Assembly: GCA_965226795.1 (NCBI GenBank)
Contig: CBDDDZ010000005.1
Location: forward strand, 1,984,001 to 2,048,000
DNA length: 64,000 bases
Origin: Candidatus Latescibacterota bacterium
GTDB lineage: Bacteria; Latescibacterota; UBA2968; GCA-2709665
Reading direction: 5' to 3'
This document shows positions 22,507-33,077 of the stretch, in pieces (position 1 is the stretch's first letter; every line of letters begins with the position of its first letter). Made by a program: the position numbers and the translations under genes. The notes below the pieces were generated by a model. The model was not told the origin of the DNA. It made no database searches and worked only from the letters and a program-made list of their open reading frames with translations.

Positions 22507-22938
22507 CGACCGGCCTTTCGTGACTTCGGAGGATCGAAACGACCCACTGTCGCGTCCCTGCGACCTGCGTTGCGTAATGCAGGCGGCTGCGTTCACGGTG
22601 ACGGGCACGGGGTGGTTCCACGCTCGCGTCCAACCGACGCAACGCGGGATACAGCAGATCGTGCGAATATAGATAATCCGCAAAAACCCGTCAAGAACCG
22701 CCGCCCTGTTCCCACGGATGGAGAACGGATAACGCGCGGCGGCCTTTTCCTTGTTCCCGTCCCGCCCGCGCCCTATCTTTCAAGGGGTTCACGCGCTCGT
22801 CGAGACAAACGTCGTCCACGGCGCCAACCGGCTGGTCTCCAGGGGTTCTTTCCACGGGCGGAATGGGGGTAAGCGACGACGGCAGGCGTGCGACGCCGCA
22901 TTCAACGGCGGCGATTCAACGGGGCAATCGCGTGGGGG

Positions 22939-23631
22939 ATGACCATGGGGCACGAATCCATTCACGAAGCCGCGGGCAGAGGCGACCTCGACACATTGAA
23001 AAAAATGGTCGAGGAACGGCCCTGGGCGGTCGACCAGGACGACCGGCACGGGTGGCGCCCCATCTTCCATGCCTGTTTGCGCCGCCGCCTCGATATTGTC
23101 CGGTATCTGATCGATCGCGGCGCCGATCTGGCGGCACACGACGGCTACGCGATGCACTACGCGGCCGAAGTGCCCGACAATAAAGACGTCGTGTCGTTGC
23201 TGGTCGGGTACGGCAGTCTGGACGCGCATACGAAACCGGCGAGCGAAGTCGCACGCCAGTTCATCTACGCGGTTTTCCTGGCCAACGTCCCCCGGGTCGA
23301 CGCCATGCTCCGCGCCAATCCGGCGCTGGCGCGGGAGCGCTACGCGCGTGGGGACGCCGCCCTGCATCACGCCGCGCGGAACGGCGACCTGTACATCGTC
23401 ATGCGCCTGGTCGGCCACGGCGCCGACGTCAACGCTACCTCCGACAACGGCCACTTTCCCCTGTACTGCGCCGCCGGACACGGACACGCGGAGACAACGC
23501 GGTATCTCCTGGAAAGCGGCGCGGATCCGGAAGCGACGTTGGCCGACGGCAAGACGGTCGCGGCGTGGCTTAAGCAATACACAGATCACGACCGGCGCCT
23601 GAGATCCTGTCTGGAAATCCTGGAGAGCTGA
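22939..23631 (+). CDS. Ankyrin repeat protein
   Basis: IHEAAGRGD, GDAALHHAARNG...GADVNA, PLYCAAGHGH. Confidence 0.92.
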   Translation: MTMGHESIHEAAGRGDLDTLKKMVEERPWAVDQDDRHGWRPIFHACLRRRLDIVRYLIDRGADLAAHDGYAMHYAAEVPDNKDVVSLLVGYGSLDAHTKPASEVARQFIYAVFLANVPRVDAMLRANPALARERYARGDAALHHAARNGDLYIVMRLVGHGADVNATSDNGHFPLYCAAGHGHAETTRYLLESGADPEATLADGKTVAAWLKQYTDHDRRLRSCLEILES

Positions 23632-23746
23632 ATATTGCGCGGCGTCGAGAGAACGGCAGTCCTCGCACCCGGACGCCAGGTGAAATTACCTGCCCTGATG
23701 GATGAGGGATAAATTCACTTGACAACGCTTGCACCATTACTTTTAT

Positions 23747-24833
23747 TAGGGAATCGTGGAAGTCCATTTGGACCGCGCTATTCAACCTTACTCTCCCCCG
23801 CACGTGTAACAGTCGCTACCCGGAGAAGTTATCCGCTGTGGCATGGTGGCCTGCGCTTCAGTGAAATTCGTGTAAGGCAAGCCGTCCTGCCGTACGCCAA
23901 TCCAGTCCAAACGCGTGGGTCGAACGAAATCAGTTCCACGCGCGAATAACGCAACCCGCGAATCGGGCGTCCACGCGATTCAATACAAGCGCGACGCGGT
24001 TTGCGAATCAGCGTACTGAAGTCTCCCGGGCTGATCGGACTGACAGGTACCATCGGTTCGCGATAGCTGAAATCTGAAGTCGGTTTTTGTGGGATGTTCG
24101 TGACGGGGGGCACACGCTGACGCCCACGCCGCCCCGTCGGTAACCGTTGCGGCCACAATCTTCCACGGGCCGCGGCAAGTAACTTATTTTTAGGGAGGTA
24201 GACATGGCAGGTAGAGTTATCGTAGGTCTCATCGCCCTCGGTGCGATCATTGGGGGCCTGGCGGGCGGCGCGATTCTGGGAGAAGGCATCCTTGCGCTCG
24301 TGCTGGTCATCTTGGGTCTCGCCTATGCAGGCGTTGCGATTGACGCTGAGGACGCAACGGGCTACCTCGTGCTTGCACTTGCCGTCGGCGGTGCGGGAAT
24401 GGCGAACGTGCTGGGCAACATCCCGGGAATCGGCGAGAAATTGGACATGATCGTCGATCTGGCCGGCATCTCACTGTATGCCGGTGTGGTCACCGTGCTA
24501 GTGCAGAGGACTGTGAATCGCATCAAGGGTTGAGCACCTCCGAAGAATGAGCACCCTTTAACGGCAGGCCTACTCTCGAAATAAGGCAACCGGCGTCGCG
24601 TTGCGTTTGACTTTCTTCGCGTCTCGTTATTCGACGTCCCCCATCGAAAAACGGATGCTTCGGCGGTAGCGCCGGAAAGGTAGCCTTTCGAACGAGAGAA
24701 CGGGGATCCTCGTCAAACCGTGTCCGCCCCGCAAAGACGGACGGATATTGATAATACCATAAATAGAGGAAGATCCCAGTCTGCCGAAAAGCGGTAGTTA
24801 AAGAGGTATTCAGACAGGCCGCCTGATTCCCTA
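23747..24833 (+). ncRNA. Candidate large structured RNA with paired ends enclosing a small ORF
   Basis: TAGGGAATCG/TGATTCCCTA end pairing, CCTGCCGT/ACGGCAGG long-range helix and more than 10 nested local helices (see findings). Confidence 0.55.
24204..24533 (+). CDS. Small Gly/Ala-rich hydrophobic protein (109 aa), unknown function
   Basis: Strong AGGGAGGT RBS; about 4 hydrophobic helices and a basic C-terminus. Confidence 0.85.
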   Translation: MAGRVIVGLIALGAIIGGLAGGAILGEGILALVLVILGLAYAGVAIDAEDATGYLVLALAVGGAGMANVLGNIPGIGEKLDMIVDLAGISLYAGVVTVLVQRTVNRIKG

Positions 24834-24857
24834 CCCCCAGTTGTCGGTGACCTGTTC

Positions 24858-24907
24858 GCGGATACGACAAGACCCCCGGGTGCACCCGGGGGTCTTGTCG
24901 TATCCGC
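24858..24907. repeat. Perfect 50-bp palindrome (terminator or cruciform candidate)
   Basis: GCGGATACGACAAGACCCCCGGGTG|CACCCGGGGGTCTTGTCGTATCCGC. Confidence 0.9.
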
Positions 24908-25024: not shown

Positions 25025-27415
25025 ATGTCGCCCCATTGCCCTCTGCGAAATTCCATACTGGTACTTGCCCTGATTTTCGTCGGATGCCAGCCGGACGAGA
25101 AGGTGACGGTTTCCGGCGCGGTGACGAAACCGGGCGCGTACCGGTACGCGCCCGGCAGACCGGTGGCGGACTATCTGGAAGATGCCGGCGGCGCAACCGA
25201 GGAGGCGCTGTTGGACGAGGCCTACGTGTCGCGCGTGCGCGCGGACACGTCCGGGGTGGCGGAAATCGGAGACGTGACGATTCCGTTGTCGGAGAATCCT
25301 GAGATATCGCCCGGGGATGAGATTCGGATTCCCGGGCGCATTTATGACGTGCGATTGGACACGGTTCGGCTCGTGGACGACGTACGGTTGGTCGACGGGA
25401 ATCGAATCTATCGGATTCCCTCGGGCGCCCTGGTGACCGGGTGGACGGAACGCGGCGTCCAGGTGGCGCTGATGCTGGGACGCGGAAAGGTATTCGAAAC
25501 GCCCGATACGTCCAAGGCGGTGTCGGCCTTTCACTATCTGTACATCCATCTGCATCCCGGAGAATATCCGCGCCTGGCGCGATTTACCGGGGAAGTGGTG
25601 GACAGTCTGGAGGCGCTCGAAGACGCCCACACCATCCACAGGCGGGTGGTAAACTCCCTGGAACATCTGCGTGACGGGGGTCTGCAGCTTCCGACCCACG
25701 GGTATTGGCGCGTGATAGAGGGTTATTTCCTGGCCCCGAGGAGGACATCGCGTCCCGGGAGTGGCATGCGCCGGCGCCGGTTCAAGGACGGACGCGTGTT
25801 GACGACCTTTCCGGACGGGCGGCAACGATGGCAGCATCCCGACGGGCGGGTCAGCGAGGCGTCACCGAGCGGCGCCACCGAAGACCGGTTTCCCGATGGA
25901 CGAATCGTGTTCACCGACCGGTGGAAAAACGTGCGCACCACGTATCCCGACGGGCGGGTCAACGTGGCGTTTCCGAGCGGCGCCACCGAAGACCGGTTTC
26001 CCGACGGACGGATTGTGTACACCGACCGGTGGAAGAACGTGCGTACCACGTATCCCGACGGCCGCCGGGAATGGAGAATGGCGTCGGGAAGGCGGGTGGA
26101 ACGGGCGACCGACGGTCGGATAGTCGGGCACAATGTGGACGGCGATTTAATTGAAAAGATGCCGGACGGCGGAACCCGCCGCGTTGCTCTGGACAGTTCG
26201 ACGTGGATTAAAGACGCCAACGGCGTGATCACATTGATCGGCGGGAAATCCCTGAAAAAGATATATCCAGACGGACGACATGTACTAATTACGGAAAAAG
26301 GCGACGAGATCACCACGTTTCCGGACGGACGGCGCGTCTCTCGTCTGGCCGATGGCTCCGTCGTTCATTCCGATCCCGCAGACAGTGTGGCCGCAAGGCC
26401 CGCTTCGCGACAGGTGCAAGGCATCCCGGTGGAGAAATATCCCCGGGGGACGCCGCGCGAGGGTGTCACGTCGATTCGGAGCGGCGACGGCCGGTTGGCA
26501 ACCCGCGGAGAGGGAAGTTTGCGTACCGTCCGCCCCGACGAATATTTGACCTCAAAAGGAGGGACCCGGGAGACGTTTCCCGATAGGCGGTTGGTGGAGA
26601 CCGGTCCCTTTGGCCAGAGAATCACCTCCTGGCCGGACGGAAGAATGGAAATCCGGATGCCCGTCGCTTACGGGTATCCGGGGCGGTTGAGAACGGACCT
26701 GGCAACGGTCGATCGGCTTCCGGAGGCGGTCGCCATCGGCGAGGAACTGACCGTGTCGGGACAGATCCATGGCGAGGTGGAAGATATAAACGTGATGGCA
26801 TTTCTCGTACCCGACGGAGACGCGATCAAAGGCGACGTGCGCAGGCGGGGACGGCGGTTTCGCGCGCGGTTCCGGTTCGGCGAGGCGGGGCATTGCCGCG
26901 TACAGGTCCAAATTGTATTGCCCAAAGCGCGTTCGTTTACTGCTTCCCACCAGTCCGTGATTGTCGGCAATCCCGATGATCTGGAAGACAAAGTCCTGGA
27001 AATTGCTCCATATCCGGGGGACGAGGCCGCCCAGCTTGTTCTGATCGATCGGATCAACGCGGCCCGGAAGCGGATTCGACGGGGTTCGGTATTTCCACAT
27101 CCCGAGTTGATGCACGTGGCGCGCATCCGGCTCGAAGAGATGCTTGCGATGGGTGATATATCCCATTTTTCCATGACAGGACTGGACGTGGGATGGCATG
27201 CGACCTACCGGCGGTTGCCCTTCCACCGCGTAGGTGAAAATGTGGCGAGAACGCATTTTGTCGAAACGATGCACGCCGGCTGGATGCTGAGCGCGGGGCA
27301 CCGCGCGAATATCCTGGCGAAGCACTGGACGCATGTGGGGGTGGCGGTTGCCGAAGCGGAGGGATCGGTCTGGGGCGTTCAGGTGTTCGGGCAGCGTTTC
27401 GACCAGGGCCCTTAG
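25025..27415 (+). CDS. Lipoprotein with SLBB domain, PDG beta-repeats and C-terminal CAP/SCP domain
   Basis: Lipobox FVGC; VTVSGAVTKPGAY...LEDAGG (SLBB); many xPDGR repeats; GENVA...WMLSAGHRANIL...HVGVAV (CAP). Confidence 0.8.
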   Translation: MSPHCPLRNSILVLALIFVGCQPDEKVTVSGAVTKPGAYRYAPGRPVADYLEDAGGATEEALLDEAYVSRVRADTSGVAEIGDVTIPLSENPEISPGDEIRIPGRIYDVRLDTVRLVDDVRLVDGNRIYRIPSGALVTGWTERGVQVALMLGRGKVFETPDTSKAVSAFHYLYIHLHPGEYPRLARFTGEVVDSLEALEDAHTIHRRVVNSLEHLRDGGLQLPTHGYWRVIEGYFLAPRRTSRPGSGMRRRRFKDGRVLTTFPDGRQRWQHPDGRVSEASPSGATEDRFPDGRIVFTDRWKNVRTTYPDGRVNVAFPSGATEDRFPDGRIVYTDRWKNVRTTYPDGRREWRMASGRRVERATDGRIVGHNVDGDLIEKMPDGGTRRVALDSSTWIKDANGVITLIGGKSLKKIYPDGRHVLITEKGDEITTFPDGRRVSRLADGSVVHSDPADSVAARPASRQVQGIPVEKYPRGTPREGVTSIRSGDGRLATRGEGSLRTVRPDEYLTSKGGTRETFPDRRLVETGPFGQRITSWPDGRMEIRMPVAYGYPGRLRTDLATVDRLPEAVAIGEELTVSGQIHGEVEDINVMAFLVPDGDAIKGDVRRRGRRFRARFRFGEAGHCRVQVQIVLPKARSFTASHQSVIVGNPDDLEDKVLEIAPYPGDEAAQLVLIDRINAARKRIRRGSVFPHPELMHVARIRLEEMLAMGDISHFSMTGLDVGWHATYRRLPFHRVGENVARTHFVETMHAGWMLSAGHRANILAKHWTHVGVAVAEAEGSVWGVQVFGQRFDQGP
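25838..26062 (+). repeat. Intragenic 108-bp tandem duplication (36 aa)
   Basis: PDGRVxxAxPSGATEDRFPDGRIVxTDRWKNVRTTY occurs twice. Confidence 0.9.
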
Positions 27416-27738: not shown

Positions 27739-28404
27739 GTGCAGGGTGTATCGGGCAACATCAGACGAGAACGCTTTTCAGCCTTACAGGACAGCGGGTT
27801 ACAGCGCCTCCGGGCCGATCTGGACAGGATCAGGACCCGAACGAAAACGCCACGCTGGTCGCTGGCGCAGTTGGCCGGGCGCCTTTGCGAACTCTCCTCC
27901 AATTCAGGAGCCGGTCTGCTCACAGCTGCCTTCCGGCTGGTGCTGGATGCGCAACTCGGGCATGAGCCGGTGGCCTGGATCACGGCCACGCCGGATACCT
28001 TCTTCGCGCCCGATGCAGCCGAAAGCGGCGTGGACCTGAGTGCCCTCGTCGTCATCCACGTGCCCGATGCCCAGTCCGCGGCGCGTTCGGCGGACCGGCT
28101 CCTGAGGTCGGGCGCCTTTGGCCTGATGGTGATGGATCTGCACTCCGATCCCACAATTCCGTTTCCGCTGCAGGCGCGGCTGGCCCACCTGGCGCGGGCC
28201 CACGACACCGCCCTGCTCTGCCTGACCTCAAAAGCCAGGGAGACACCTTCGCTGGGACCAATGGTCTGTCTGCGAGGGCAATCCTCCTGCCGGCGCCTGG
28301 GGGTCGACCGCTTCCAATACGACATCGAGATTTTGAAGGACAGACGTCATGGACCGGGTTGGCGCCACACCGAAATCTGCCGCGGGCCGGACGGCCTGCA
28401 TTAA
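27739..28404 (+). CDS. imuA: RecA-like ImuA protein
   Basis: GRLCELS, FFAPDAAESGVDL, LLRSGAFGLMVMDL; no intact Walker A; first gene of the cassette. Confidence 0.85.
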   Translation: MQGVSGNIRRERFSALQDSGLQRLRADLDRIRTRTKTPRWSLAQLAGRLCELSSNSGAGLLTAAFRLVLDAQLGHEPVAWITATPDTFFAPDAAESGVDLSALVVIHVPDAQSAARSADRLLRSGAFGLMVMDLHSDPTIPFPLQARLAHLARAHDTALLCLTSKARETPSLGPMVCLRGQSSCRRLGVDRFQYDIEILKDRRHGPGWRHTEICRGPDGLH

Positions 28405-29851
28405 TATCCGGGCGCTGCCGCTGCAACTCCTGCTGAGGAGGCGCCCGGAGTGGCAGCGGAGACCGGTCGCGGTGGTGGAAAAAGAGAATCCTCAGAGCCC
28501 CATCCTCTGGACGAACCCGGCGGCCGACCGGGCCGGCATCCGCACGGGAATGCGCTATGCCTCCGCCCTCTCGCTGGACCGGAACCTGTGCGCGGGAACG
28601 GTTTCCGAGAGGGAAATCCAGACCGCGGTGCGGCAGGTCCACCGGCTTCTGGACCGTTTCAGCCCCCGGATCGAGCCCTGCGACGACGAGCCCGGGATTT
28701 TCTGGGTCGATGCCAGCGGACTCGACAAGCTCCATACCTCTCTCGAAGACTGGGCCAGGCAGATCGACTCCCACCTCTCCCGGCTGGCGCTGAAAGCCAG
28801 TATCGTCGTCGGCTTCAGCCGTTTCGGCAGCTATGCCATCGCCAAGTCGGCGAGCCGGGTGACCGTGTTCCCTTCCCTTGAGGTCGAGGAGACGGAAAGC
28901 CGCATGGTGCGGCTGCTGCATCTGCAAATCGACCCGAAGCTGCGCGACCGGCTCGAAAAACTGGCGGTTCATACCGTGAGCGACTTCCTGGAGCTTCCCG
29001 CAGGCGGCATCGCGCACCACCTCGGCGAGCAGGCCCGGAGCCTCTACCGTTTTGCGTCGGGAACGCTGTCGCTGCCGATTCAATCCCGAAAGATCCCCGA
29101 GCCCCTCCGCGTCCGGATGGACCTGGACGAGCCCGAATCCAATGCCCAGAGACTCCTTTTCTGGATCCGGGAGCGGCTGGATCCCCTGTTGCGGGCGGTG
29201 GCGGCAAGGTGCCAGGCGGTGGCGGCCCTGCATCTGCAACTGCTGCTGGAAGACGGAGACCGTCATCGTCAGCGCATCCAGCCGGCAAGGCCGACCCTGG
29301 AGGCGCCGGTGCTGCTGGACCTCCTCCGATTGCACCTGGAGACGGTCTCTTTCCCCGCTCCTCCGGTGGAATTGGTCCTCGAGGTGGAGGGCGTGTACGT
29401 CTCCGCCGAAACACTGAACCTGCTGCAGCGGAATCCGCGCCGCAATATTGAGGCGGCCCTGGATGCCCTGGCCCGGGTTCGCGCCGAGTTCGGCCCCGAT
29501 TCCGTGCTGTCGGTCCGGCTCAAATCGGGGCACCTGCCGGAAGCCCGTTTCGAGTGGCAGCCCTTCAAGAAGCTTGCCGCAGCCAGTCCCCAACCGGTCC
29601 CCATGCGCCCCCTGGTGCGGCGCGTCCACGCCTGCCCCGAACTTCTGGAAGGGGCTTCCCTTTACCATGCGAAAAACCGGAAGCCGTCGCCGGGCGCGGG
29701 GCATCCGCCGGGACATGCGATCAGTGGAGAATGGTGGCGCCGGGAGATCCGGAGAGACTACCGGTTCATCAAGACCCATCGGGGAGAACACCTCTGGATC
29801 TATTACGACCAGCAAATGCATCGCTGGTACGCCCAGGGCCGCGTCGAGTGA
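28349..29851 (+). CDS. imuB: Y-family polymerase-like ImuB
   Basis: PVAVVE, AGIRTGM, FSPRIEP and C-terminal [12 protein letters not shown]...LWIYYD...WY.QG. Confidence 0.9.
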
Positions 29852-29890
29852 CCGCACCCGCCAGGCCAGGGCCGGGCGCAGAGACGCACC

Positions 29891-29910
29891 GGGAATTTTA
29901 AAACAGCTTC
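29891..29910 (-). mobile_element. Solo end of the same MITE/IS family
   Basis: GGGAATTTTAAAACAGCTTC is the exact reverse complement of 27415-27434 and is followed by TAA. Confidence 0.75.
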
Positions 29911-29927
29911 TAAGAAGGACGGAAACC

Positions 29928-32900
29928 ATGAACGGACCATTGGCTCCGGGCCGTAACAGCGCCCGGGCGCCCGCCTCCGATTCGCCCTACGTCCCCCTCT
30001 GGTGCAAGAGCAACTATTCCTTTCTGGAAGGAGCCAGCCATCCCGAGGAACTGGTCGAAGCCTGCCGGCAGAATGGCCTTCCCGCCATGGCGCTCACCGA
30101 CCGGAACGGCGTGTACGGGATCGTCAGGGCTCATGTTCAGGCCCGCCAGGCGGGTGTTCACCTGATTGCAGGATCGCAGATCGGCCTCCAGGACGGATCG
30201 GAGATCCTGTTGCTGGTCCAGAACCGGAAGGGCTACGGCAATCTCTGCCGCCTGCTGACCGACGGGCATCTGCGTTCTTCCAAGGGGGCGTGTAAGCTGG
30301 GCCTGGAGGACGTGTGTCGCTGCAATCCCGGTCTGATCGCCCTGTGGATCGGCCGGGCCGGGCCGGAAGCTGCCGCGGAGGGCGGCCCGGAACCCGTGCT
30401 GGAACAGCTCAAAGCGGCATTCGAGGACCGCCTGTACATCCTGTTGGCCAGACACCGTCGGGCGGAGGAGATTCTGCAGGAAATTCGGCTCCGTGAACTG
30501 GCAGACCGGTTCGGCCTTCCCACCGTGGCCGCCGTGGAGGTCCTCTATCACGCTCCTGAACGACGACGCCTGCAGGACGTCCTGACCTGTATCCGGAAAG
30601 GCGTGACCCTGTCCTCGGCGGGCCGGCACATCCAGCCGAACGACCAGTACGCCCTGAGGCGTCCGGACGATCTGGCCCGCCTCTTTATCGACGATCCGGA
30701 ATCGGTCAGGCGAACCCGGGAAATTGCCGACCGCTGTTCCTTCTCGCTCCAGGAACTGCGTTACCGCTATCCGCTGGAACGCGTGCCGGAGGGCAAGACT
30801 TCCATCCAGTACCTGCGCGATCGGACGTTCGAGGGAGCCGCCCGCCGGATGGGCGAAAAGTTCCGGCACCAGATTCCACAATTGGAGAAGGAACTCGAGC
30901 TGATCCAGGAACTGGAGTACGAAGGCTACTTCCTGACCATGTACGAGATCGTCGAGTACTGCCACCGTCAAAAAATCCTCTGCCAGGGCCGGGGGTCGGC
31001 CGCCAACTCAGCGGTCTGCTTCGCCCTGGGGATCACCAGCGTGGATCCGACCCAGGTGGAACTTCTCTTCGAACGCTTTCTGTCCAGGGAGAGGGCCGAG
31101 CCTCCGGATATCGACCTGGATATCGAACATAACCGCAGGGAAGAAGTGATCCAGCATGTGTACAAAAAATATGGGCGCGAACGCGCGGCGATGGTGTCCA
31201 ACGTGGTGCGTTACCGGTACCGATCCGCCATCCGGGAAGTGGGCAAGGCGCTGGAGATTTCAGCAACCAGCCTGGATCGCCTGGCCAAACTGGTGTCCCA
31301 TGAAAGCTGGAGCGATGCCTTCATTGCGCAGGCCGGGCTCGATCCCCGGAACCCGGCCCTTCGCCATCTCGCTTCCCTGGTAGAAGAGATTCAGGATTTT
31401 CCCCGCCACCTCTCCATACATCCCGGCGGCTTTCTGCTGGGCCATCGTCCCGTCCACGAACTGGTGCCCATCGAGAACGCCACGATGGATGGCAGAACGG
31501 TCATTCAATGGGACAAGGAGGACGTGGAGCATGCCGGTCTGTTCAAGGTGGACCTGCTGGGGCTGGGCGCCCTCACCCATCTGCATCTCTGCTTCGATCT
31601 CCTGCGGCGGCACCGCGGGCAGGACCTGTCTCTGGCCACCCTTCCCCGGGGCGACGCCGCGACCTTCGACATGATCTGCCGCAGCGATACCGTGGGGGTG
31701 TTTCAGATCGAAAGCCGGGCGCAGATGGCCATGCTGGGGCGCCTCAGGCCGCGCAGTTATTACGACCTGGTGATCGAGATCAGCATTGTACGCCCCGGAC
31801 CCATCACGGGCGGCATGGTGCATCCCTATCTGCGACGGCGCAACGGAGACGAGGAAGTCGAATATCCCCATCCTTCCCTCGTTCCCGTCCTGAAGAAAAC
31901 CCTGGGCATTCCTCTGTTTCAGGAGCAGGTGATGCAACTGGCCATGGTTGCGGCCGACTACACCCCCGGCGAGGCCGATCAGCTCCGGCGGGATATGGCG
32001 GCGTGGCGACGTTCCGGACGCATCGAGCGGCACCATCGCCGTCTCGTCACCCGCATGGTCAAAAAGGGCATCGAACACGAATTTGCCGAACGCATCTTCA
32101 ATCAGATCCGCGGCTTCGGCGACTACGGCTTTCCCGAGAGCCATGCCGCCAGCTTTGCCCATATCGCCTATGCCACCGCCTATCTCAAATGCCACTATCC
32201 GGCGGCGTTCGTCTGCGCCCTGCTGAATGCCCAGCCGATGGGGTTTTACGAGCCCGCTACCATCGTCAACGACGCCCGGAGGCACGGGATCTCCGTGCGG
32301 CCCGTTTGCCTGCGCGAGAGCCGCTGGGACTGCACCCTCGAGCCGGCCCGATCCCGCGCGTCGCCCGCTCCGTTCGCCGTGCGCATGGGGCTGCGTTACG
32401 TCAGCGGACTGGGCGATGCGGACGGACGCCGGCTCTCGGCCGCCGCGAGAGAGCGCCCTTTTCAGGATCTCGAAGACGTCGCCCGGCGGAGCGGGCTTCG
32501 CCAGGACAAGCTGGAGGCCCTGGCCGAAGCGGGCGCCTTCGAGTGTTTCGGCCTGGACCGACGCGGCGCGCTCTGGCAGATCCACGGTATCGCAACCCCG
32601 AAAGAGCCCGCGCTGCCACTGAACGGCCACGTTTCGCCGCCCCGGTTTCCCCTCCTGAGCGGGTTGGAGACCGTTCTCTGGGACCACCAGGCAACCGACC
32701 ACAGCACGCGGGGACACCTCCTGAAACCGCTGCGTTCCGCGCTGGCCGCCCGGGGACTGCCCACGGCGCACCAGATCAACCGGATGCAGGACGGCCTCCG
32801 GGTTCGCTACGCGGGGATGGTCATCTGCCGCCAGCGCCCGGGAACCGCGAAAGGCGTCACCTTCATGACCCTGGAGGATGAGACGGGGTTTGTGAACCTG

Positions 32901-33077
32901 GTTATCTGGGAAAGGACTTTCAAGCGCTATTCCCTGCCGGCCAAAACACTTTCCTGTATGGGCGTGACCGGAAAACTGCAGGTGGGAGAGGGCGTAACCC
33001 ACCTGGTGGTTGAAAAAATCTGGAAGCCGAAGCTGGATACCGGGGCGGTCCAGGCCAAGAGCCGGGATTTCCATTGA
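29928..33077 (+). CDS. dnaE2: Error-prone DNA polymerase DnaE2
   Basis: [54 protein letters not shown] and terminal SRDFH. Confidence 0.97.

Follow-up and report, generated by a model that had tools for sequence, protein, structure and literature searches.

Does the stretch of about 1.1 kb that lies between an ankyrin-repeat gene and an SLBB/CAP-domain gene in this Latescibacterota genome work as one large RNA with paired ends, or does it carry the gene of a small membrane protein with long flanks? The window examined here is the whole stretch of 64,000 nucleotides around it, for which an earlier note had proposed a large structured RNA enclosing a small hydrophobic ORF, with an unusually stabilised mRNA among its options. 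The locus is a transcribed stand-alone small membrane-protein gene with long flanks, not one large RNA. These flanks are likely mRNA ends that stabilise the message, and the option of an unusually stabilised mRNA likely agrees with the reading preferred here. The claim of a large RNA should be dropped; an unannotated membrane-protein family and a candidate leader motif remain.

Organization and Transcription of the Locus

The ankyrin-repeat gene ends at 23631 and the SLBB/CAP-domain gene starts at 25025. Between them we find a single conserved, transcribed unit with a genuine small membrane-protein gene, as had been suggested, composed in order of a conserved promoter, a leader, a 109-codon ORF, a trailer, a 3' hairpin and a palindrome. 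It is single-copy in the 5.4-Mb genome and present in 13 of the 14 other genomes of the genus. The ORF was confirmed at 24204-24533 (forward strand), as was the perfect 50-bp palindrome at 24858-24907; the five proposed closing helices that were checked directly lie where they had been placed, and the other arms were found by search. In line with the earlier description, neither flank of the 13 orthologues contains a conserved ORF preceded by a ribosome-binding site, and a leader peptide was rejected given the absence of a conserved small ORF. Rfam searches of the window, the region and 15 other loci matched tRNAs alone. At the gathering threshold there was no tmRNA, RNase P, SRP, GOLLD, ROOL, HEARO, group I/II intron or riboswitch, and only three matches appeared at E 1-9; the tmRNA of this genome sits on contig C3.

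A 20-nt direct repeat (85%) occurs in the gap after the ankyrin gene (23646-23665) and in the trailer (24693-24712). The downstream gene (25025-27415) combines SLBB, Tcp10_C-like repeats and a CAP domain in a product of 796 aa, and a 108-bp repeat unit of this gene is absent from strain X10. Beyond it, 27739-33077 holds three ORFs that resemble an imuA-imuB-dnaE2 mutagenesis cassette.

The promoter (23719..23747, forward strand) has the form TTGACA-17 nt-TTTATT, with TTGACA and CTTTTATTA unchanged in 13/13 orthologues. Sites before the tmRNA and tRNAs give the genome pattern TTGACA-N17-TAnnTT, and because the promoters of this genome combine a 17-nt spacer with TAnnTT, we place the likely -10 box at 23742-47. 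Of the two hexamers put forward earlier, TTGACA at 23719 is retained, while TACTTT at 23738 lies merely 13 nt past it and is replaced. The -10 box departs from the genome pattern in missing the usual A at position 2, which explains why a strict scan overlooked this promoter. From these elements we infer a transcription start at about 23753-23755, within the 5' arm of the proposed terminal helix. A contig of a related strain (run X10) has an A at 23743, giving a canonical TATATT box, in a piece with 7 gaps and uncertain register.

Twelve runs recorded as RNA contain the stretch, and contigs were compared for seven RNA-type sponge runs (four studies) and one unlabelled run. These contigs give neither strand nor mapped ends, and their depth is a poor measure of level; since the runs were picked because they contain the unit, they show its presence and merely hint at level and ends, and uncovered stretches beside the unit were excluded as evidence. 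Adapter sequence borders both ends of the contigs in X1 (23821-24834) and X4 (23776-24862); X14 yields 23770-24280 and 24701-24861, and X8 yields 23850-24044 and 24088-24642. The contigs of X2 and X3 (2/7 RNA runs; 22800-24797 and 22792-24797) run through the upstream ankyrin gene. In X10 the unit has a depth of 2016, and the long contigs beside it have 79, 32, 99 and 5; in the unlabelled X15 depth is flat at 8-25 per bin. We consider it likely that the gene is abundantly transcribed. A 3' end near 24835, as first supposed, disagrees with the two contigs that reach 24861-62, 28 nt past the 3' arm of the terminal helix. No back-joint of a circular RNA was present in 8 runs, as judged from contigs, which drop rare forms.

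The unit closes with a conserved 3' hairpin (24814..24855, forward strand; 46/48 and 47/48 cells paired), whose 12-bp consensus helix has a probability of at least 0.67 in 12/13 orthologues, followed by the palindrome (24858..24907, no strand assigned). The core of the latter is 95% paired in the orthologues, its U-tract is weak, and RNA contigs end at or before 24862. The palindrome is likely a terminator. An 82% similar copy lies on contig C3.

An Unnamed Family of Small Membrane Proteins

The product is a hydrophobic protein of 109 aa (GRAVY 1.3). In the 13 orthologues, first, second and third codon positions vary at 20, 9 and 57 of 109 sites; since variation is concentrated at third positions, the ORF is under purifying selection. 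Homologue searches gathered 70 proteins at 40-95% identity, 116 representatives, and 310 with a wider profile, and the best 80 of 152 matching genome stretches were used for comparison. Record titles name Latescibacterota, Gemmatimonadota, Rhodothermales, Acidobacteriota, and Alpha- and Gammaproteobacteria, several in conflict with GTDB kinship. Within the window's phylum, 61/168 genomes contain the family, one of them at no better than E 8e-4; of 401 genomes sampled from the phylum of a gammaproteobacterial locus, 7 do, only 3 of them strongly. Look-alikes in the ESM Atlas fall into unnamed clusters at 0.90-0.91, mostly archaeal (Nanobdellota or Woesearchaeota), and distant relatives of 100-125 aa (E 1e-8 to 1e-3) may be of this archaeal type.

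Neither Pfam nor NCBIfam gave a match at meaningful E for the protein or 57 homologues, and PHROG and PDB sequence searches with the protein returned nothing significant. The sequence profiles of SMR, Fluc, SemiSWEET, MscL and LrgA/CidA also failed to match; LrgA reached E 0.014 in 1/58 members only, and 21 relatives hold no LrgA. A viral or plasmid origin was rejected, with no relative in IMG/VR or PLSDB. Our literature search, which covered few subscription journals, found no description of the family or unit, and passages of PMC9258230 do not single the family out.

Across 81 loci the gene is present in one copy in 59, two in 13 and three in 9, the copies in tandem, separated by 45-110 nt spacers in place of long flanks. 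These tandem paralogues form separate position-specific clades. The possibility that the flanks are themselves decayed paralogues was discarded (protein and DNA profiles empty, best E 3.8). Neighbouring genes differ between lineages (74 proteins scanned). In a 56-row tree, one starred branch (97/93) groups a protein each from Latescibacterota, Bryobacterales and Alphaproteobacteria; because this branch mixes three lineages, it suggests that the family may have moved between them. A two-copy array after a histidine kinase and a response regulator recurs in L014, L018, L043, L047, L049-L053, L057, L061, L072 and L080, and most loci of this lineage carry the window's TTGACA-17-TTTATT promoter form; in L014 a polyphosphate kinase lies downstream on the opposite strand.

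With 79 sequences, AlphaFold predicts a confident four-helix fold (pLDDT 96; helices 2-20, 27-45, 52-67, 69-72 and 77-108). A four-copy model, the copy number being our choice, scores 0.86, where none of 3 controls exceeds 0.00, on a benchmark reached by 20/30 solved homodimers and 1/23 monomers that applies roughly here; its pLDDT is 87 and 94% of contacts agree between runs. One copy contacts two others, using a different face for each; residues 56 and 59 meet their own counterparts. From this we predict that the copies join head to tail in a ring whose axis lies close to helix 52-65. Three members are internally doubled (P0142, P0158 and P0167; 218-250 aa), which would suit an even-numbered oligomer. 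Generic helical bundles were all that either model retrieved in structure searches, which points neither for nor against a new fold: the lowest E from Foldseek was 4.4, and the top VIA hit (Z 7.0; 95 residues aligned at rmsd 4.8) was a designed bundle. In the 79 sequences only A14, G38 and G77 are near-invariant, the conserved residues being small or hydrophobic, and the C-terminal tail is basic and conserved. These small or hydrophobic conserved residues, together with tandem amplification and the lack of a fixed partner gene, suggest a structural ring or passive pore. On this view it would most likely be an abundant inner-membrane structural ring, either a scaffold or a hydrophobically lined passive pore, and most likely not an enzyme or ion-coupled transporter. 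This sponge-symbiont gene encodes a protein without family or structural relative that carries a confident prediction of self-assembly, possibly an envelope trait shared by sponge symbionts from several lineages.

A Candidate Two-Hairpin Leader Motif

Comparison of the sequences ahead of all gene copies revealed a common motif directly before the ribosome-binding site. Two hairpins precede this site, and they are the sole leader helices paired above 90% in the 13 orthologues; the inner 5' helices proposed earlier reach 47-83%. Hairpin 1 (24102..24138, forward strand) is 100% paired and kept beyond the genus, with a probability below 0.2 in 2/13 full-length folds, the window's sequence included. 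Hairpin 2 (24146..24176, same strand) is 93% paired in the genus and common to Rhodothermales, Acidobacteriota and other lineages. An A/U-rich spacer with the Shine-Dalgarno GGGAGG (24193-98) follows in the sequence (24179..24198, forward strand). Covariation was measured in sets of 38 and 23 leaders picked by eye from the 81 loci, whose members are related, so that kinship inflates the shuffle tests and the compensating changes come from few lineages. In the 38, GGAG is invariant and hairpin 2 has 82% of cells paired with covariation of 0.265 versus 0.209 shuffled (0/500). In the 23, hairpin 1 is 95.4% paired with two compensated pairs, and the two hairpins taken together reach 95.8% pairing and 24 compensated cells versus 8.5, with covariation of 0.304 versus 0.199 (0/500 shuffles; slid controls at most 0.08). 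Of the flanks, only these two hairpins are conserved beyond the genus.

Model R1, built on the final 80 nt with Shine-Dalgarno and ATG included, has a single match in its own genome and matches solely at family start codons. It detects 41/56 sources at E <0.001 (33/48 among sources outside training), and all 54 matches in 151 genomes of the phylum, compared by hand, end at a family start codon. No match was obtained in 14/56 sources, mostly gammaproteobacterial loci; members of the family from Gammaproteobacteria and Foliamicus are without the motif. Rhodothermales loci carry a TATACT box of promoter-like form some 100 nt ahead of the ATG, with two hairpins following directly. No Rfam family matched the leader. 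Since it stays with the gene across phyla, we put it forward as a candidate new family of cis RNA that extends beyond the genus.

Near-identical copies occupy several sites of two Acidobacteriota genomes (L031, L032, L034, L036 and L037). At L037:2422-4003 a distance of 1.5 kb, with a transposase-domain ORF in it, separates the motif from the gene downstream; this copy seems to have been parted from its leader by an insertion sequence.

How might the unit work? We hold it probable that it yields an abundant single-gene mRNA, stabilised by its untranslated regions (leader hairpins, strong Shine-Dalgarno, two 3' hairpins), that feeds a self-assembling membrane ring. This combines computed conservation, selection, presence in RNA libraries and hairpin covariation with a predicted fold and self-assembly; the start site, the stabilising role and the function of the protein are what we infer from them. 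Transcription would begin near 23754 and stop in the palindrome. The leader hairpins and the A/U-rich spacer would shield the 5' end and prepare ribosome loading, like stabilising leaders, and the 3' hairpin and palindrome would block decay from the 3' side, making the message long-lived through its untranslated ends. The conservation of hairpins before a strong Shine-Dalgarno is as in UTR-stabilised ompA-like messages; the ompA 5' UTR stabiliser has a two-hairpin anatomy. A bolder version, possible in our view yet improbable, is that sponge symbionts, free-living proteobacteria and small-genome archaea share an undescribed ring-forming four-helix superfamily serving as an abundant membrane pore or scaffold, and that in sponge symbionts the leader, co-transferred with the gene between phyla, is a new regulatory RNA that may even be bound by the ring.

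One observation does not fit an always-open message: the Shine-Dalgarno is predicted to be mostly paired (unpaired 0.03-0.46). The leader could instead be a translational switch, in which CCUGCC (23886-91) and a run of pyrimidines close by take up the start codon and Shine-Dalgarno in base pairs, silencing the gene until a signal, the ribosome or the protein itself remodels the structure. Pairing probabilities assign CCUGCC alternative partners, either local, at the start codon, or in the trailer. It can pair with the start-codon region in 11/11 aligned leaders, with a probability of at least 0.89 in 6/12 full folds; positions 23904-05 are the best partner of the Shine-Dalgarno in 5/13 orthologues, and the sequence of hairpin 2 is conserved across phyla. 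However, the probability of the start-codon pairing is 0.00 in the window's own sequence, its pairs show no compensatory change, and the entire segment is missing from L003 and altered in L011. Moreover, neighbouring genes suggest no common ligand pathway and Rfam is without a match in 15 other loci. A switch of this kind is thus unlikely.

Long Flanks and Long-Range Pairing

Both flanks vary more than the ORF. Identity across the 13 orthologues is 58-73% in the leader and 55-87% in the trailer versus 86-94% in the ORF. Leader length varies from 207 to 480 nt across the genus; L003, the nearest relative by its trailer (87%), is without about 245 nt of leader, and about 110-120 nt of trailer are deleted in 7/13 orthologues. 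Searches with profiles built from the distal leader and the trailer found no homologue among loci outside the genus. The distal leader (23754..24098, forward strand) is genus-specific, variable in length and weakly folded (z +0.83 for 23752-24090), and the 5' flank as a whole (23752-24203), for which nested helices had been claimed, folds no better than dinucleotide shuffles (z -0.31; 14/40 as low). The 3' flank has z -2.28 without the palindrome (0/40 shuffles) and -6.19 with it, the palindrome dominating its folding energy. The trailer (24534..24813, forward strand), likewise genus-specific, contains an internal 8-bp helix, 24562-69/24779-86, with a probability of 0.99 in the window's sequence and at least 0.58 in 9/13. 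Under the preferred reading of a UTR-stabilised mRNA, the distal leader and mid-trailer would be genus-specific, dispensable extensions.

Could leader and trailer nonetheless pair across the ORF, as in the hbs mRNA of Bacillus subtilis? The best candidate, which the earlier note does not list, is a 10-bp complement, 24100-09/24707-16, in which 110/114 cells (96.5%) are paired in the 13 orthologues, within a trailer otherwise about 70% identical (slid controls 33-60%). Against such a contact, compensatory change is absent and all 500 shuffles equal the observed value; its predicted probability is at most 0.04 in the 7 folds, out of 8, that contain both arms, the 5' arm belongs to hairpin 1, which covaries locally, and the 3' arm is deleted in L010. 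We regard this contact as very unlikely. A longer, 15-bp complement (23986 with 24595; 2/100 shuffles) was set aside, since it is not kept as such in the orthologues; it falls in a segment deleted from 7/13 of them.

Less credible still is a large RNA whose folded ends pair and which acts with its own membrane protein, be it an OLE-like RNP or a self-packaging RNA. The high contig depth limited to the unit in X10, the contig that stops at 24834 and the conserved basic C-terminal tail of the protein would suit it, and the 94 pairs proposed earlier lie slightly above shuffles in paired cells (75.8% versus 74.7% across 13 orthologues; 7/500 shuffles reach the observed value). Yet the terminal helix, said to join the ends, is just 63.6% paired in these orthologues; its 5' arm overlaps the likely -10 box and its 3' arm lies inside the variable loop of the conserved 3' hairpin. 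It appears in both MFE and centroid structures of 23740-24840, a cut that leaves out the 3' arm of a competing hairpin, and has a probability of 0.51 when the fold begins at 23740. Contigs, as noted, extend past it.

The 8-bp helix thought to close off the ORF fares no better: in folds begun at the predicted transcription start, its probability is at most 0.01 in 12/12 sequences with the 5' arm. It is 77.1% paired in the 13 orthologues, with a mostly kept 6-bp core and one two-sided change in L011. Each arm has local partners and loses to them, the 3' arm being employed by the trailer helix. Watson-Crick runs of at least 8 between shuffled leader and trailer arise in 83/100 mononucleotide shuffles, and of at least 9 in 45/100; the helix is therefore of chance length, and the longest run observed is 9. 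A conserved large scaffold is also hard to reconcile with flanks that vary more than the ORF, can lose some 245 nt, are missing outside the genus, fold no better than shuffles on the 5' side and give way to short spacers in tandem arrays, or with the lack of viral relatives. Least probable of all is a type I toxin-antitoxin pair whose toxin mRNA is inhibited by fold-back. The small hydrophobic product, long structured UTRs, a Shine-Dalgarno predicted to be paired, patchy spread and multiple copies beside transposases in Acidobacteriota loci might recall such a locus. Against it stand a four-helix protein of 109 aa versus 30 aa for AapA1, the lack of conserved 5'-3' pairing (Shine-Dalgarno partners and leader-trailer pairs vary between orthologues), tandem copies set apart by short spacers, and no occurrence on plasmids or in IMG/VR. 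The minus strand of the 13 orthologues also has no match to the promoter pattern, which fails to recover the plus-strand promoter as well.

Comparison with Known Systems

Among known systems, aapA1/IsoA1 provides a type I toxin mRNA with inhibitory folding and a 30-aa AapA1 (PMC5416894); the hydrophobic product and long folded UTRs resemble the unit. In contrast, our protein is far longer and has four helices, conserved end pairing is absent, and the minus-strand promoter scan gave no sign of an antisense RNA. OLE RNA and OapA offer another parallel, an abundant RNA whose partner is a small membrane protein of four helices with a predicted tendency to oligomerise; OLE is a non-coding RNA of about 600 nt with about 25 covarying helices and about 25% of positions >97% conserved, and oapA is a separate gene (PMC12265935). 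Here, the ORF lies inside, the flanks are genus-specific and only two hairpins covary. The OLE model of Rfam matched neither the window, the region nor 15 loci, and the CNNM-type membrane domain of OapA is absent, by Pfam and NCBIfam, from the 109-aa protein and 57 homologues.

The hbs mRNA shares with the unit a single short gene, a structured 5' UTR, a strong Shine-Dalgarno and a 3' UTR, and its stability is set by the UTRs and initiating ribosomes, with a proven 14-bp 5'/3' interaction (PMC5737220). It differs in that our best candidate for such an interaction is 10 bp without covariation, and in that the UTRs here total about 800 nt. The ompA message of E. coli, with its 5' UTR stabiliser, likewise encodes an envelope protein behind a hairpin-bearing leader (PMC2777011). 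The product here is instead an alpha-helical member of an unnamed family, and the likeness is one of layout. By analogy with these two systems, the unit likely works in the manner of the hbs or ompA messages.
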